Source: Naegleria gruberi
Taxonomy: Eukaryota
DNA length: 7,960 nt
Assembly: GCA_000004985.1 (NCBI GenBank)
Contig: GG739099.1
Direction: 5' to 3' (one strand)
The translations under genes were made by a program, and so were the position numbers. The notes below the pieces were generated by a model that ran no database searches, was not told the origin of the DNA, and saw only the letters and a program-made list of their open reading frames with translations. Shown piece after piece: positions 1,933 through 7,960 of the stretch. The first letter of the stretch is position 1; each line of letters begins with the position of its first letter.

Positions 1933-3654
1933 TTACCAATATCCGTCACAACTACATTTACCATCTTTAAAATGGTGATATCTATTTGCATCTCTAATAA
2001 TTATTTCAACATCCATCACTTTTGAAATGAATTCTGTGGCAGTATGACAATCATTGCAAACACGAAGATTTGCCGCTAAAATAATTGATTTTCTCTTTGG
2101 ATTCAAAACAAATGCATGAGCTGTTGCTGTCTTCTCAGCATGTCTACAAAGTGAATCTAATTTTTCTTCTTCAGTTAATAATTTTGAGTTAGTTACCCAT
2201 CTAGTATCTGGCTCAAAACCAGCTTGGATTATTTTTCTGTAAATCTCCTCTCTCATTTTCTCAATTTCCTTAAATCTTTCATATTTTTTTGATCCAGAAA
2301 CAAATTGGTATGATTTACCATCCTCTTCCTGATACACAATTCCTGGTATCTTTTTAATTCCATTTTCAATCATTAATTGTCTTATATTGTCAGCTTTTTC
2401 AACATTATTGAACTTTCTACATCCTGCCATTAAAGCACTCCACAAAGAATAATTCATTCTTTCGTTAATTATTTTTTCTGCCTCATGAAATCTTCCTGAA
2501 CGGGCAAAGACATCAACCATTACACAGTCTACAATTACTGATGGATTATGGTTGTATTTTGTCTTCATTTCTCCATAAAGTTGATTCGCCTCATCAATCA
2601 TTCCACAATGTGAAAATGTGTTCAGCATGATTGTGAATGTGTTCTCGTTCATTTCAACGTTCTTAGCAACCATTTCATTAAATAAATTCATGGCTTGTGT
2701 TCCTTTTCCATGTTGAGCGTAACATGACAACATGTTATTATATGTTATGATGGATAGACGTTTTTGGGCTGATTCTTCGACAAGCTTTTCAAATAGTTGT
2801 TGTGCAGTTGATTGATAAGCAATTCTTGAATAAAAGTAGATCATAACACTGACTATCTCCTCATGAACATCCATTCCTTTTAGTTTGAGTTCATCAATAA
2901 TATCCAGTCCCATCTTTCTAGCAAAATATTCTCCACATCCAGCCAACAATATGAGGTAGGTTATCTTATCTGGTTCAATATGTTCCTTCATCTCATTAAA
3001 AACCACCATTGCTTTGTTCAGTCCATATTCTATTGTAGATGGGTTTTGGGTATTTGTTGTACTTTGAATATGTGCTTGAATTAAACAATTCCAAATAGCA
3101 ACATCGTTCATTAATCCCTTTGATTTCAATTGTTCACATTCCTCAATTGAAACCTCTGGATGTCCACATTTTGTGTAAAAGTTGACAATAGATGCTAAAA
3201 GTTCAGAAGAGTGATCTTTCAAGGTGCCAGTTGCAAGTTTGTGAATTGCCTTTCCTTCTTCAAACAATTTTGAATCAGCACACGCTGTGAGTAAAATGTT
3301 AAAAGTGGTAGAGTTTGGTTCAACACCACAATCTTGCATTTCTGTGATTATTTTAATTGATTTTGGAACTTCCTTAGTTTGAATATGTGCTTGAATTAAA
3401 CAATTCCAAACAGCAACATTGTTCATTAATCCCTTCGATTGTAATTTTTCACATTCTCCAATTGACACCTCTGGATGTCCACATTTTGTATAAAAACTAA
3501 TAATTGATGTCAAAAGTTCAGTAGAGCAATCTTTAACATTTTCTATTGCTTGTTCATGAATCAATTTACCTTCTTCAAACAAATTAAAATCAGTACATGC
3601 CTTAAGTATAATAGTATAGGTTGTAGAATCAGGGTTCAATCCAAATTGTTGCAT
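1933..3654 (-). CDS. PLS-class PPR protein with DYW deaminase domain, C-terminal segment. It contains two full P-L-S triplet repeats plus P2-L2-S2, a short E region and DYW, and has its own stop.
   Basis: 573-aa ORF. Motifs match the plant PLS consensus: P (VWNCLIQAHIQ…EMQDCGVEPN), L (TFNILLTACADSKLFEEGKAIHKLA) and S-like (LLASIVNFYTKCGHPEVSIEECEQL, compare YAKCG). P2 is TYNNMLSCYAQHGKGTQAMNLFNEM, compare WNAMIAGYAQHGHGKEALELFEQM. Then come L2/S2 (CGMIDEANQLYGEM…, VMVDVFARSGRFHEAEKII), an E-like region (LWSALMAGCRKFNNVEKADNIRQLMIENGIKKI) and DYW. The frame is open upstream into the N gap at 3695, so the 'M' at 3654 is an internal Met of a repeat unit. Confidence 0.9.
   Translation of the reverse strand: MQQFGLNPDSTTYTIILKACTDFNLFEEGKLIHEQAIENVKDCSTELLTSIISFYTKCGHPEVSIGECEKLQSKGLMNNVAVWNCLIQAHIQTKEVPKSIKIITEMQDCGVEPNSTTFNILLTACADSKLFEEGKAIHKLATGTLKDHSSELLASIVNFYTKCGHPEVSIEECEQLKSKGLMNDVAIWNCLIQAHIQSTTNTQNPSTIEYGLNKAMVVFNEMKEHIEPDKITYLILLAGCGEYFARKMGLDIIDELKLKGMDVHEEIVSVMIYFYSRIAYQSTAQQLFEKLVEESAQKRLSIITYNNMLSCYAQHGKGTQAMNLFNEMVAKNVEMNENTFTIMLNTFSHCGMIDEANQLYGEMKTKYNHNPSVIVDCVMVDVFARSGRFHEAEKIINERMNYSLWSALMAGCRKFNNVEKADNIRQLMIENGIKKIPGIVYQEEDGKSYQFVSGSKKYERFKEIEKMREEIYRKIIQAGFEPDTRWVTNSKLLTEEEKLDSLCRHAEKTATAHAFVLNPKRKSIILAANLRVCNDCHTATEFISKVMDVEIIIRDANRYHHFKDGKCSCDGYW
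1936..2346 (-). other. DYW-type cytidine deaminase domain, from the PG box to the C-terminus.
   Basis: PGIVYQEEDGKSYQFVSGSK (PG box, compare PGCSWIEV…HVFVAGD). HAE at 2142..2134 (HxE zinc/catalytic motif, compare HSEKLAIAFGLI). CNDCH at 2058..2044 (CxDCH). Then …RDANRYHHFKDGKCSCDGYW followed by the stop at 1933-1935 (compare RFHHFKDGSCSCGDYW). Confidence 0.88.
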
Positions 3655-3694
3655 TTCTGTGATTATTTCAATTGCTTTTTGAGGCTCATTGTTT

Positions 3695-3744
3695 NNNNNN
3701 NNNNNNNNNNNNNNNNNNNNNNNNNNNNNNNNNNNNNNNNNNNN
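3695..3744. other. Assembly gap of 50 N inside the PPR-DYW coding region.
   Basis: Run of n. Reading frames are open on both flanks (…KMKTKG | gap | NNEPQKAIEIITEMQQFG…). Confidence 0.95.
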
Positions 3745-3745
3745 A

Positions 3746-4351
3746 TCCTTTGGTTTTCATCTTTTCAAATTGATCAATAGCTATTATTGGATGTCCGCAT
3801 TTTGTGTAAAAATTAATTATACTATTGTTCAACTCTATTGTAGGATTATTGAGCACTTGACCAGATGCTTGATGCAGTAATTTACCTTCTTCAAATAATT
3901 TTGAATCAGCACATGCTTTAAGTAAAATGTTAAAAGTGGTAGAGTTTGGTTCAATACCATAATCTTGCATTTCTGTGATTACTTCAATTGCCTGTCGAAC
4001 TTCCTTATTTTGAATATATGCTTGAATTAAACAATTCCAAACAATATTGTTCATTAATCCTTTCGATTTCAATTGTTCACATTCCTTAATGGCTGTTTCT
4101 GGATGTCCACATTTTGTGTAAAAGTTGACAATAGATGCTAAAAGTTCAGAAGAGTAATCTTTCAAGGTGCCAGTTGCAAGTTTGTGAATTGCCTTTCCTT
4201 CTTCAAACAATTTTGAATCAGCACACGCTGTGAGTAAAATGTTAAAAGTGGTAGAGTTTGGTTCAACACCATAATCTTGCATTTCTGTGATTATTTCAAT
4301 TGCCTGTCGAACTTCCTTATTTTGAATATATGCTTGAATTAAACAATTCCA
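3746..4351 (-). CDS. Same PPR-DYW gene, middle segment of about two P-L-S triplet units. The frame is open into the 50-N gap on its 3' side, and a frameshift lies on its 5' side.
   Basis: Translation is WNCLIQAYIQNKEVRQAIEIITEMQDYGVEPNSTTFNILLTACADSKLFEEGKAIHKLATGTLKDYSSELLASIVNFYTKCGHPETAIKECEQLKSKGLMNNIVWNCLIQAYIQNKEVRQAIEVITEMQDYGIEPNST…TKCGHPIIAIDQFEKMKTKG, then the gap. In this frame a TAA at 4378..4376 closes it upstream, so homology resumes only from the W codon at 4351. The 'M' at 4282 used by the ORF track is an internal repeat Met. Confidence 0.8.
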
Positions 4352-5393
4352 TCCATAATACTTTTTGATATCTTTTTACATTCATTAATTGCAATATCTG
4401 GATGTCCACATTTTGTGTAAAAATTAATAATTGATGTCAAAAGTTTAAGAGAGCTATTATCTCTCAAAGTATTATTTGCAATTTTGTGAATCAATATTCC
4501 CTCCTTATATAATTTCAACTTAGCGCATGCGGTAAGCAAAATGGAGAATGTGGTAGCGTTTGGAGTAACCTTGAATTGTTTCATTTCAGTAACTGTGTCG
4601 ATGGCTTTTTGTATTTCATTTATTTGAATGTATGCTTCAACTAGACATGTAAAAGAAACAACATTCATTAATCCCTTTGATTTCATCTTTTCACATTCGT
4701 TGATTGCAATCTCTGGATGTCCACATTTTGTATAAAAATTAATAATGGATGTCAATAGTTCAACAGAGCAATTATCTTTCAAAGTGTTAGTTGTAATTTT
4801 GTGAATCAACTTTCCTTCTGCAAATAACTTGGTATTAGCACAAGCTGTTATGAGAATGTTAAAAGTTGCCGAATCTGGACAAATACCATTATCTTTCATT
4901 TCATGAATAACATCAATCGCTTTCTTAATATTGTTCTCTTGAATATATGCTTGAATTAAACTATTCCATGTTATGATTGTCATCCATTTTTGTTGTTTCA
5001 CTAATTCAATTTCTTCTATTACCAACTCTGGTTTTCTTAATTTCAATGCAAATGATATAATTGTCGTTGATAATTGAGGACTTGCTAAATTACTCTTTTT
5101 TACAAGTTGGTAAAGTGTCATTCCAACTTGAATGTTTTTCTTAACAGTGGCTGCTTTTAAAAGTGGGATATAAATTGCATAGTTTGGTTCAATATCTTTG
5201 CCTTTCATATTCAACACAATTGCTAATGCTCTTTCCAAATCATCATTCCAAATACAATTATTAATAAAGTGAGTGTATAAAAATACATTCATTGCGCCAT
5301 GTTGCTCTAATTCATTAACAATTTGTTCACAAAATTCAACTTGNGTATTACCTACAGAGCAAACTTTAAGTATGGCAGTTAATGTAAATAAAT
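4339..5393 (-). CDS. Same PPR-DYW gene, N-terminal-ward segment. It has divergent P-type motifs, then two P-L-S triplets, and ends at a premature stop created by the frameshift. The 5' end is lost in the 1.5-kb N gap.
   Basis: 317-aa ORF from the Met at 5292. The frame stays open upstream to the gap edge (…TAILKVCSVGNTQVEFCEQIVNELEQHGA-MNVFLYTHFINNCIWNDDLERALAIVLNMKGKDIEPN…); the n at 5344 falls in ACN, which is Thr whatever the base. The last S-like motif reads LLTSIINFYTKCGHPDIAINECKKISKSIMDGIV* instead of the canonical …NECEKMKSKGLMNVV…WNCLIQ. That indicates roughly 12 nt missing plus a 1-nt frame change between 4342 and 4375. Confidence 0.8.
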
Positions 5394-6895
5394 NNNNNNN
5401 NNNNNNNNNNNNNNNNNNNNNNNNNNNNNNNNNNNNNNNNNNNNNNNNNNNNNNNNNNNNNNNNNNNNNNNNNNNNNNNNNNNNNNNNNNNNNNNNNNNN
5501 NNNNNNNNNNNNNNNNNNNNNNNNNNNNNNNNNNNNNNNNNNNNNNNNNNNNNNNNNNNNNNNNNNNNNNNNNNNNNNNNNNNNNNNNNNNNNNNNNNNN
5601 NNNNNNNNNNNNNNNNNNNNNNNNNNNNNNNNNNNNNNNNNNNNNNNNNNNNNNNNNNNNNNNNNNNNNNNNNNNNNNNNNNNNNNNNNNNNNNNNNNNN
5701 NNNNNNNNNNNNNNNNNNNNNNNNNNNNNNNNNNNNNNNNNNNNNNNNNNNNNNNNNNNNNNNNNNNNNNNNNNNNNNNNNNNNNNNNNNNNNNNNNNNN
5801 NNNNNNNNNNNNNNNNNNNNNNNNNNNNNNNNNNNNNNNNNNNNNNNNNNNNNNNNNNNNNNNNNNNNNNNNNNNNNNNNNNNNNNNNNNNNNNNNNNNN
5901 NNNNNNNNNNNNNNNNNNNNNNNNNNNNNNNNNNNNNNNNNNNNNNNNNNNNNNNNNNNNNNNNNNNNNNNNNNNNNNNNNNNNNNNNNNNNNNNNNNNN
6001 NNNNNNNNNNNNNNNNNNNNNNNNNNNNNNNNNNNNNNNNNNNNNNNNNNNNNNNNNNNNNNNNNNNNNNNNNNNNNNNNNNNNNNNNNNNNNNNNNNNN
6101 NNNNNNNNNNNNNNNNNNNNNNNNNNNNNNNNNNNNNNNNNNNNNNNNNNNNNNNNNNNNNNNNNNNNNNNNNNNNNNNNNNNNNNNNNNNNNNNNNNNN
6201 NNNNNNNNNNNNNNNNNNNNNNNNNNNNNNNNNNNNNNNNNNNNNNNNNNNNNNNNNNNNNNNNNNNNNNNNNNNNNNNNNNNNNNNNNNNNNNNNNNNN
6301 NNNNNNNNNNNNNNNNNNNNNNNNNNNNNNNNNNNNNNNNNNNNNNNNNNNNNNNNNNNNNNNNNNNNNNNNNNNNNNNNNNNNNNNNNNNNNNNNNNNN
6401 NNNNNNNNNNNNNNNNNNNNNNNNNNNNNNNNNNNNNNNNNNNNNNNNNNNNNNNNNNNNNNNNNNNNNNNNNNNNNNNNNNNNNNNNNNNNNNNNNNNN
6501 NNNNNNNNNNNNNNNNNNNNNNNNNNNNNNNNNNNNNNNNNNNNNNNNNNNNNNNNNNNNNNNNNNNNNNNNNNNNNNNNNNNNNNNNNNNNNNNNNNNN
6601 NNNNNNNNNNNNNNNNNNNNNNNNNNNNNNNNNNNNNNNNNNNNNNNNNNNNNNNNNNNNNNNNNNNNNNNNNNNNNNNNNNNNNNNNNNNNNNNNNNNN
6701 NNNNNNNNNNNNNNNNNNNNNNNNNNNNNNNNNNNNNNNNNNNNNNNNNNNNNNNNNNNNNNNNNNNNNNNNNNNNNNNNNNNNNNNNNNNNNNNNNNNN
6801 NNNNNNNNNNNNNNNNNNNNNNNNNNNNNNNNNNNNNNNNNNNNNNNNNNNNNNNNNNNNNNNNNNNNNNNNNNNNNNNNNNNNNNNNNNNNNNN
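5394..6895. other. Assembly gap of 1502 N. It contains the 5' end of the PPR-DYW gene.
   Basis: Run of n. The minus-strand ORF is still open at 5393. Sequence after the gap (6896 onward) has stops in all minus-strand frames. Confidence 0.95.
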
Positions 6896-7590
6896 CCTAG
6901 CTAAATATATAATAATTATTTAAATATGAATGTGCACAAATATGAACAAATTTCGGAATACATAGTTAGATCCAATATTTCAAAAGAGACAACAACTTAC
7001 TTTCATAGAGAACATGAGAACGACCACAATACATCCTCAAAACTCTCTCCTGATCATCAATCAACGTACAAGGCTTAAATACTTGACGATCATTCACATC
7101 AGCAACCCGAGCCAATTGCATACTTGCATTATTTCCTGCACTCTTTAATTGATGATCATCTTAATCAGAGGTTCATGCCCAAAAAACCTACATAAAATTG
7201 TTTCATATTTTTTTTTAAAATAAAAATAGAATATGACAAGCAGAGTTCATATTTGTAATTTCATTATAAACATTTAATTAATAATTGAACATAGTAAAGT
7301 GTTGATATTATGTAATTTACAAAGAGACGTTGTTTTAGTCAGTGAAGGATAAAGATCACATCTTGCCATAACAAAGGCAATAACGTTTAGTCACTTGAAG
7401 AACTATGGATGAGTCATTTTACTGTCAAATGTCAACTCATCACAAAAAAAATTGATCAAAGTGTTACCAACATCATCCTATTAGTAATAATCACAACAAT
7501 TTTATTTTACTACTAAACAACACACTTTCATCAAAATTTCCCATCAACATTGACATCCTCATAATATTAATATATAAATAACAAACAATA

Positions 7591-7959
7591 ATGGATTCTA
7601 AATTAGTTATTCGTGTCTACTTTGTAGATGATTCCTTCAAAACCATTGCCGTTAGTCCAACCATCAGTGCTCGTGATTTATCGATTGTTGTCGCTGATAA
7701 GATTGAATTGGAACAACGTGAAACTTTTGCGCTCTTTTTCTACAAGAACGGAGAGTGTAGATGTTTAGATGATGATGAACAACCGTGCAAATTGATGGTC
7801 TATGAAACTGTTGGTTCTGATGCAGACTTTCAAAAGTATGTGAATGATAAACAAGAATGGGAAAAATTAAAGAAAGACTGGGAGAAGGACTCTAAATTAG
7901 TATTCAAGAGAAGAGTCTTTTTAAAGCACAAGGCAATTCCACGGAACAAGAAAAGTTTT
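7591..7959 (+). CDS. N-terminus of a protein with a ubiquitin-like FERM-N/Ras-association-type fold signature. It continues past the window end.
   Basis: ATG at 7591 is the first Met after an in-frame TAA at 7579. 123 codons follow with no stop to 7959: MDSKLVIRVYFVDDSFKTIAVSPTISARDLSIVVADKIELEQRETFALFFYKNGECRCLDDDEQPCKLMVYET…KLVFKRRVFLKHK. The pattern (β-strand start, 'hot' residue, …LxFKRRxFL) resembles the FERM F1 lobe / RA domain motif (L.F.FR.KFF). It was not in the supplied ORF track, presumably because it lacks a stop. A TATA-like tatataaata sits at 7571-7580. Confidence 0.55.
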   Translation, partial: MDSKLVIRVYFVDDSFKTIAVSPTISARDLSIVVADKIELEQRETFALFFYKNGECRCLDDDEQPCKLMVYETVGSDADFQKYVNDKQEWEKLKKDWEKDSKLVFKRRVFLKHKAIPRNKKSF

Positions 7960-7960
7960 G

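Follow-up and report, generated by a model that had tools for sequence, protein, structure and literature searches.

A probable Naegleria-clade PPR-DYW gene with a shortened linker before its deaminase domain

The PPR-DYW gene and the state of its assembly

The window considered here is a 7,960-nt stretch of contig GG739099.1, and its principal feature is a long gene for a PLS-class pentatricopeptide repeat (PPR) protein that terminates in a DYW cytidine-deaminase domain. On the minus strand this gene extends over 1933 to 5393 or beyond, with a gene for a CocE/NonD-type hydrolase on one side of it and the beginning of a gene for an RA/FERM protein on the other. Runs of N lie at 3695-3744 (50 N), 5344 (1 N) and 5394-6895 (1502 N); the first is a scaffold gap within the repeat array and the last is a scaffold gap that borders the visible part of the gene. 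Between these gaps the gene appears on the minus strand as three long open stretches in succession, each in a different frame, namely piece A (5391 to 4342, 350 aa), piece B (4375 to 3746, 210 aa) and piece C (3693 to 1936, 586 aa). Piece C contains a 573-aa open reading frame (ORF) at 3654 to 1933, which has an ATG at 3654 and ends in ...CSCDGYW directly before the stop codon of the gene at 1933-1935. A stop codon would be expected every ~12 codons at this base composition, the three pieces are open for 210-586 codons, and the probability of such stretches arising by chance is ~1e-22 for 573 open codons and ~3e-14 for 351.

All three pieces encode PPR motifs. In particular, Pfam matches to PPR_2, PPR, PPR_3 and PPR_1 were found in all three, with E values for PPR_2 of 2.2e-40 in piece A, 8.1e-30 in piece B and 6.8e-46 in the 573-aa ORF of piece C (2.6e-33 for PPR in the same ORF). 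The motifs alternate in the order P, L and S with a tandem period of 315 nt, corresponding to a 105-aa unit that comprises one P-L-S triplet of three 35-aa motifs; the consensus within the array is (V)xxWNCLIQAYIQ...EM...G..PN for the P motif, STTFNILLTACA....EEGK.IH for the L motif and ELL.SI.NFYTKCGHPE... for the S motif. By manual segmentation at least eight P-L-S triplets are visible upstream of a terminal P2-L2-S2 triplet. Piece A (4342-5391) consists of a non-repetitive N-proximal PPR region followed by two P1-L1-S1 triplets and is open up to the 1502-N gap, piece B carries two further P1-L1-S1 triplets (3746-4360), and the PLS part of piece C (2752-3693) comprises the tail of a P1 motif with its L1-S1, then a full P1-L1-S1, and then a P1-L1-S1 whose P1 motif contains a 10-aa insertion. 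The terminal triplet (IITYNNMLSCYAQHGKG... / ENTFTIMLNTFSHCGMIDEA... / VIVDCVMVDVFARSGRFHEA...), at 2452-2751 on the minus strand, aligns with the P2-L2-S2 consensus of plant and protist relatives, fits the plant consensus ...W..MI.GYA.HG... TF..LL.ACSH.G.V.EG... MVDL.GRAG.L.EA in a 19-sequence alignment (A1), and was modelled by AlphaFold2 (AF2) as helix hairpins with a high predicted local distance difference test score (pLDDT). The P, L and S motifs and the P2-L2-S2 block described in an earlier reading of this DNA, made from its letters alone (the original prediction), are thus borne out by the 315-nt period, the segmentation and the alignment to consensus.

The ratio of nonsynonymous to synonymous divergence (dN/dS) between repeat units is 0.13-0.50 on either side of the break between pieces A and B, and for the units of piece A against other units it is 0.13-0.32. 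Since this holds to the left and to the right of the break, the array in its entirety has evolved as a coding sequence. Two non-adjacent units of the array, at 3103-3417 and 4049-4351 on the minus strand (C2 and B1), differ at only 18 positions over ~300 nt (dS ~0.10), with dS between other pairs of units ranging from 0.5 to >1. To judge from the sequences, the near-identity of these two units indicates a recent duplication or gene conversion within the array, and events of this kind are a likely cause of the assembly gaps.

The breaks that separate the pieces can each be described in terms of the repeat register. The frame break between pieces A and B, at 4339-4361 on the minus strand, falls at a junction between an S1 and a P1 motif; comparison of the junction DNA with the paralogous repeat showed the paralogous junction near 4063 to be longer by 13 nt, and the frame of piece A runs into a TAA at 4339-4341. 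The 315-nt register is unbroken across the 50-N gap (3695-3744), which, judged by that register, would conceal ~16 aa, comprising the last residues of an S1 motif and residues 1-13 of a P1 motif, and the change of frame across this gap is a reflection of its estimated size. The 1502-N gap (5394-6895) should, by homology with a protein of Naegleria gruberi (P0170, see below), hold the missing ~120-aa N-terminus and the start codon. The original prediction had described an apparently intronless gene of 3.4 kb, which overstates what is assembled: the pieces lie in three frames and are separated by a 50-N gap and by a junction that is 13 nt short, and the N-terminus is missing into the 1502-N gap. 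The gaps and the frame break are most likely defects of assembly or sequence quality rather than signs of gene decay, since they lie within near-identical repeats on a draft scaffold with N bases, and the coding constraint seen in every piece points the same way. Plus-strand ORFs at 3550-3880 were considered and rejected, as they are antisense to the PPR frame, pass through N and have no support.

A gene broken in much the same manner is found in N. gruberi. The first 145 aa of piece A, which are non-repetitive, are collinear with residues 124-266 of P0170 (NAEGRDRAFT_45423, XP_002682649.1; 49% identity), a PLS-only model, and piece C is collinear with P0001, an 822-aa 'predicted protein' of PLS-E-DYW architecture, including the odd 10-aa insertion (QSTTNTQNPSTIEYGLNKA) in the last P1 motif. 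P0170 and P0001 share one N. gruberi scaffold of 1,001,995 bp, and their sequences suggest that annotation has divided a single PPR-DYW gene, with P0170 as its N-terminal half and P0001 as its C-terminal half. As pieces A and C are collinear with these two models, the gene in the window would be the counterpart of that single gene. The end of P0170 and the start of P0001 both fall partway through a PPR motif, and the motif position at which P0001 starts (the M of ...EMxxxG) is also that of the start of the 573-aa ORF. The N-terminus of P0170 is basic and hydroxylated (MLARKLFGKCTTNNRHLVLKSSQYATKFYSTSG) and looks like a mitochondrial presequence. The window gene and the P0170-P0001 pair share the 105-aa P-L-S unit, an FYTKCG(H/Y) S motif and the insertion of 10 aa in the last P1 motif; in both, the assembly is broken within the array, which leaves the two without a comparable count of PLS units. 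At 49-59% identity the window gene is nonetheless a different gene from P0170/P0001, either a paralogue or an orthologue from another species. The recurrence of such breaks suggests that the repeat array disrupts gene models across this PPR-DYW family generally.

The DYW domain and the linker that precedes it

The C-terminal 140 aa of the protein (1936-2355, minus strand) form the DYW domain. Pfam DYW_deaminase (PF14432) matched residues 479-573 of the 573-aa ORF over the full length of the profile (1-93/93, E=1.2e-33), and the last 171 aa matched, among sequences in the PDB, a synthetic PPR-DYW protein (9kfx, 3.9e-43), OTP86 (7o4e, 5.7e-27) and DYW1 (7w86, 1.8e-23). Consistent with these matches, an AF2 model of the last 283 aa (pLDDT 89.4, predicted template modelling score (pTM) 0.81) found as its best Foldseek match the RNA-bound 9kfx_A (TMq 0.78, E=6.4e-23), and also matched 7o4e, 7o4f and 7w86. 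The domain has all the elements of a full DYW domain, that is, a catalytic zinc site (HxE...CxxCH), a second zinc site (H...CxC) and a C-terminal DYW-like tripeptide, present as HAE (2134-2142), CNDCH (2044-2058), HHF (1969-1977), CSC (1948-1956) and a terminal GYW (1936-1944). The residues H215, E217, C243, C246 and H247 are invariant in alignment A1. The PG box, at 2302-2355 (KKIPGIVYQE...; KKIPGIVYQEEDGKSYQF), is divergent: K-K-x-P-G and the final F are kept, VYQE replaces SWIE, and the His of 'VHxF' is absent. Relative to the conserved form PGxSWIEvxgxxHxF, the PG box diverges in like manner in P0001 and in a further N. gruberi protein, P0002. The original prediction of a PLS-PPR protein with a complete DYW domain, for which a search of the C-terminus with DYW profiles was the proposed check, was therefore corroborated by the Pfam PPR matches in every piece, by the full-length PF14432 match and by the PDB matches; its inventory of catalytic signatures stood for HAE, CNDCH, CSC and GYW, and only in part for the PG box.

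Between the S2 motif and the deaminase the protein differs from its relatives. BLASTP against P0001 revealed one clean 34-aa gap, at which helix a of the E1 motif (YSLWSALMAGCRKFNNVE) is joined in register to helix b of the E2 motif (KADNIRQLMIENGI), so that the deletion amounts to exactly one motif length. What is left is a single hybrid E motif of 32-34 aa (2356-2451, minus strand), and separate E1 and E2 hairpins, as are typical of PLS-DYW proteins, are not present. In a 13-sequence alignment all 10 of the 12 relatives that reach this region (among them three N. gruberi proteins and sequences from Willaertia magna, Balamuthia, two other eukaryotes and two plants) keep both E1 and E2, and the fusion is found in the window protein only. 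The Pfam E_motif profile scored 25.3 bits, under its cut-off of 27.3, because of the E1/E2 fusion. In the AF2 model a single hairpin (H112-124/H128-140) lies between S2 and the deaminase, and the Foldseek alignment to 9kfx_A spans 313 columns, ~30 more than the query, as expected with one hairpin missing. The E-like region of the original prediction was accordingly recovered as an E hairpin, albeit as one hybrid motif and not as E1 plus E2. An intron as the cause of the gap was rejected, since the window has less DNA there than its relatives, not more. A metagenome scan with the C-terminal 283 aa returned only loci at most 29% identical, and no second E1/E2 fusion was found.

The structure of the consensus protein consPPR-DYW provides a framework for considering what this fusion might do. 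There, the contacts made by E1-E2 are with nucleotides -3 to -1 and +1/+2, and the tunnel for the RNA is formed jointly with the DYW domain (PMC13324415). The fusion would take away one helix hairpin between S2 and the deaminase. Inspection of individual positions suggests that the hybrid motif retains R(12,E1), R(24,E2) and K(last,E2), and that two others have been lost, N(9,E2) and, at position 2 of E2, the stacking residue. By analogy with the structure, the fusion would probably either bring the recognised sequence ~1 nt closer to the edited C or result in editing being weakened or lost.

Relatives of the gene and its neighbours

Protein relatives were sought with a word-indexed search and with a HMMER scan of 1.84 billion representative proteins (17,723 matches). 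The word-indexed search placed P0001 first (55% identity, 100% coverage, E=9e-292) and P0002 next, with Balamuthia (30%) and plants (20-28%) further down, and the top three of the 17,723 HMMER matches were all from N. gruberi, namely P0001, P0170 and P0171 (NAEGRDRAFT_32040). Identities were 55-59% to P0001, 49% to P0170 and 38% to P0171, followed in the HMMER scan by 35% to W. magna and 27-29% to ferns and lycophytes; plants overall reached at most 30%. When relatives were ranked by the DYW domain only, five N. gruberi and two W. magna proteins preceded any plant. A neighbour-joining tree of 26 DYW domains (Kimura distances, 200 bootstraps) grouped the window domain with P0001 and P0002 at 100% bootstrap, within a Naegleria plus Willaertia clade at 92%. 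The three DYW domains form a near-trichotomy, with pairwise identities of 70.7, 67.9 and 66.4%; the window protein and P0001 both end in the DYW variant GYW, share DYW domains that are ~70% identical, and differ in that the window gene lacks the 34 aa that cover E1 helix b and E2 helix a. Nearest relatives and tree thus both place the gene in the Naegleria/Willaertia (Vahlkampfiidae) DYW-PPR clade.

Other heterolobosean DYW-type PPR proteins (P0002, NAEGRDRAFT_32040, NAEGRDRAFT_51788 and NAEGRDRAFT_70351 of N. gruberi; KAL9657062.1 and KAL9655006.1 of W. magna; and the 12 of Acrasis kona, PMC4202320) have in common with the window gene a PLS-E-DYW architecture encoded in a protist nuclear genome and a lineage-specific expansion, and the literature links such proteins to a few mitochondrial C-to-U sites. 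The DYW domains of other N. gruberi and W. magna proteins are 47-68% identical to that of the window, and all aligned heterolobosean proteins retain E1 and E2, whereas the window gene does not. With land-plant PPR-DYW proteins and consPPR-DYW (9kfx; OTP86, 7o4e/7o4f; DYW1, 7w86) the gene shares the grammar (P1-L1-S1)n-P2-L2-S2-E-DYW, the deaminase fold and the zinc ligands, but identity to them is only 22-36%. The window S motifs are 34-36 aa long as opposed to 31, the PG box reads VYQE for SWIE, and the one hybrid E makes the linker from S2 to the active site one hairpin shorter; unlike that of the land-plant factors, the host would be an amoeba without a plastid.

Other comparisons bear on the origin of the scaffold. 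The G+C content (GC) of the window is 32.0%, in agreement with the one-third given in the original prediction, as compared with 27.7% for a W. magna locus and 38.3% for an N. lovaniensis locus, neither of which is syntenic with the window; Naegleria genomes have been reported at 33-37% GC (PMC12482156), which the window fits. We regard N. gruberi itself, with the gene as a third paralogue, and another low-GC Naegleria as about equally likely sources. An exact 40-mer from the DYW domain was absent from metagenome, prokaryote-genome and viral contig collections. Two eukaryotic contigs of 741 kb and 328 kb (L002, ENA ERZ25073694, ctg132359; and that of protein P0006) carry PPR-DYW genes that are 29% identical to that of the window, have PLS triplets that are highly self-similar and group in the neighbour-joining tree with plant sequences, not with the Naegleria clade.

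The hydrolase gene, at 13-777 on the minus strand, encodes a secreted CocE/NonD-type Peptidase_S15 protein (Pfam 1.1e-33), as had been proposed for this neighbour. Its product begins with a eukaryote-style signal peptide (MNFVLYLVLGLLIVSCCGVLG) and is 67-72% identical to a gene on an ENA metagenome contig (L001, ERZ929261). That gene contains a short intron with no counterpart in the window, and it continues to >600 aa, whereas the window ORF comprises 254 aa, with its stop at 13-15; an intron or an error at the edge of the window probably explains the short ORF. At the opposite end, 7591-7960 on the plus strand encodes the N-terminus of an RA/FERM protein (RA_2, 3.1e-11) that extends past the end of the window. 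Its best relative is 75% identical and lies on a Logan contig (L003, SRR22388222), where FERM_M and FERM_C come next. A short exon-like ORF at ~7002-7121 on the minus strand (MQLARVADVNDRQVFKPCTLIDDQERVLRMYCGRSHVLYE), which had no Pfam match, is followed directly by a GTAAGT donor-like sequence and then by the 1502-N gap; it is unlikely to be the presequence of the PPR protein, because it is acidic, and is probably the first exon of another gene. A 228-aa ORF at 1060-1746 on the plus strand, with TTG as its listed start, contains an F-box-like stretch (LWSQIPSELIIHIAMYC) and a Cys-rich C-terminal part (C..YIYKC...CKEC...C...C) and had no Pfam match. Rfam and tRNA scans of the window found nothing.

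Interpretation of the PPR-DYW gene

Taken together, these data favour the view that the window carries a nuclear gene of a Naegleria-clade heterolobosean encoding a very long PLS-class PPR protein with a C-terminal DYW cytidine deaminase, which would act as a mitochondrial editing factor; we put the probability of this reading at roughly 0.7. By analogy with plant and synthetic PPR-DYW proteins in the literature, the protein would be imported into the mitochondrion. Its PLS array would read a specific single-stranded RNA, one nucleotide per motif, and its zinc-dependent DYW domain would deaminate C to U a few nucleotides downstream (PMC13324415, PMC6397227). The substrate, judging from the literature on the clade, would be a mitochondrial mRNA (PMC4202320 and papers cited there).

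Several observations weigh against this reading. As assembled, the gene is not intact, being interrupted by a frame break at ~4340-4360 and lacking a start codon. The loss of an E hairpin is unique among the aligned relatives and might disable correct positioning of the target C. The protein collection contained no protein at least 90% identical to the 573-aa ORF, and neither neighbour, hydrolase or RA/FERM protein, matched any named Naegleria protein in it. The lack of such matches would fit either a Naegleria species that has no annotated proteome or a collection from which proteins of the source itself are missing. Moreover, with 11-12 DYW proteins and 2 verified editing sites each in Naegleria and Acrasis, any given member may lack a target (PMC4202320). 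In particular, 10-11 DYW-type PPR proteins are encoded by N. gruberi, in which mitochondrial C-to-U editing has been verified at two sites (PMC4202320, citing Knoop & Ruedinger 2010 and Ruedinger et al. 2011), and Acrasis kona has 12 DYW PPR proteins and, likewise, two verified editing sites (PMC4202320).

Some of these same observations would be expected if the gene were a decaying paralogue, in which the frame break and the 34-aa deletion are real lesions and RNA editing has been lost. Pieces A and B are in different frames across a junction 13 nt shorter than the paralogous one, the E deletion occurs in no other aligned relative, no protein model in the collection is at least 90% identical, and DYW genes are more numerous than editing sites in Naegleria (PMC4202320). 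We nevertheless consider that explanation unlikely, albeit not negligible. The pieces have open frames of 210-586 codons, against an expectation of one stop per ~12 codons, dN/dS is 0.13-0.50, and all catalytic and zinc-ligand residues of the DYW domain are intact; the E deletion is exactly one motif, in register, and yields a hairpin that is well modelled by AF2; and the defects, in near-identical repeats beside N runs and a single N (5344), are typical of draft-assembly error. That N. gruberi and A. kona have more DYW proteins than verified sites, an excess for which endonucleolytic or splicing roles have been raised (PMC4202320), is also what one might see if the protein were intact but had another role, be it mitochondrial RNA cleavage, stabilisation or processing, or the provision of its DYW domain in trans, and the shortened E linker deviates from the geometry needed for precise editing in the consPPR-DYW structure (PMC13324415). 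Conservation of HxE...CxxCH, of the second zinc site and of the C-terminal tripeptide would be expected for catalysis over a purely structural role, and we regard such another role as improbable. Nor do we find it easy to credit an alternative that derives from the N. gruberi annotation, in which piece A and pieces B and C are two tandem genes, PLS-only and then PLS-DYW. An in-frame stop lies at 4339-4341, after which the next frame offers an ATG at 4282, and N. gruberi has separate P0170 and P0001 models on one scaffold; yet no intergenic DNA separates the pieces, the repeat register passes straight through the break, and it would be unusual for a PLS array to lack both a P2-L2-S2 end and a C-terminal domain. 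Furthermore, the end of P0170, the start of P0001 and the start of the 573-aa ORF all lie mid-motif, which looks like truncation of the models.

That the window might be a land-plant nuclear contig, or plant contamination, was suggested by the PLS-E-DYW architecture, which is typical of land plants, and by the many fern, lycophyte and angiosperm proteins found at E<1e-60. But identity to plant proteins is 22-30%, whereas the N. gruberi proteins, with which the gene is collinear along its entire length, reach 49-59%. The DYW domain moreover falls within the Naegleria/Willaertia clade, the best relatives of the neighbouring genes are on protist-like environmental contigs with no close plant relative, and GC is 32%. 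Plant contamination was rejected on the basis of the identities and the tree, and a plant source of any kind is exceedingly improbable. In these respects the original prediction, which had held a land-plant origin to be unlikely, had assigned the gene to the non-plant DYW-PPR proteins found in Naegleria and had proposed the phylogeny of the DYW domain as a check, agrees with what we find. As for how such genes came to be in protists, horizontal transfer from plants is the interpretation in the literature (PMC4202320), and a 2026 preprint stresses lineage-specific expansions and losses instead (10.64898/2026.09.04.749523). The Acrasis DYW PPR proteins have been placed with Physarum, not with Naegleria (Fu et al.).

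Under the favoured reading of a heterolobosean mitochondrial editing factor, the gene is an unremarkable representative of the heterolobosean DYW-PPR family known from the literature, which is one branch of the plant-type PLS-DYW editing factors, and its single notable feature is the shortened linker before the deaminase. The fusion may have created a functional, natural short-linker PPR-DYW protein that still edits, with S2 opposite -3 instead of -4, although we think this rather doubtful.

DYW-type PPR proteins and mitochondrial C-to-U editing in Naegleria were published in about 2010-2011, and subsequent reports of DYW-PPR proteins and editing have added Acrasis, Willaertia, malawimonads, amoebozoans and diplonemids. 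The significance of the present findings beyond cataloguing is slight; if the scaffold comes from N. gruberi, the gene is probably among the 10-11 DYW PPR genes already counted. For annotators, the findings illustrate that the near-identity of the 315-nt PLS repeats in genes of this kind leads to broken draft assemblies and broken gene models. Should the short-linker reading prove true, the gene would serve as a natural experiment for the spacing rule ascribed to E1-E2 on the basis of the 2026 consPPR-DYW structure, and, if the protein is active, it would offer a natural test of how linker length relates to editing position, of relevance to the engineering of PPR-DYW base editors.

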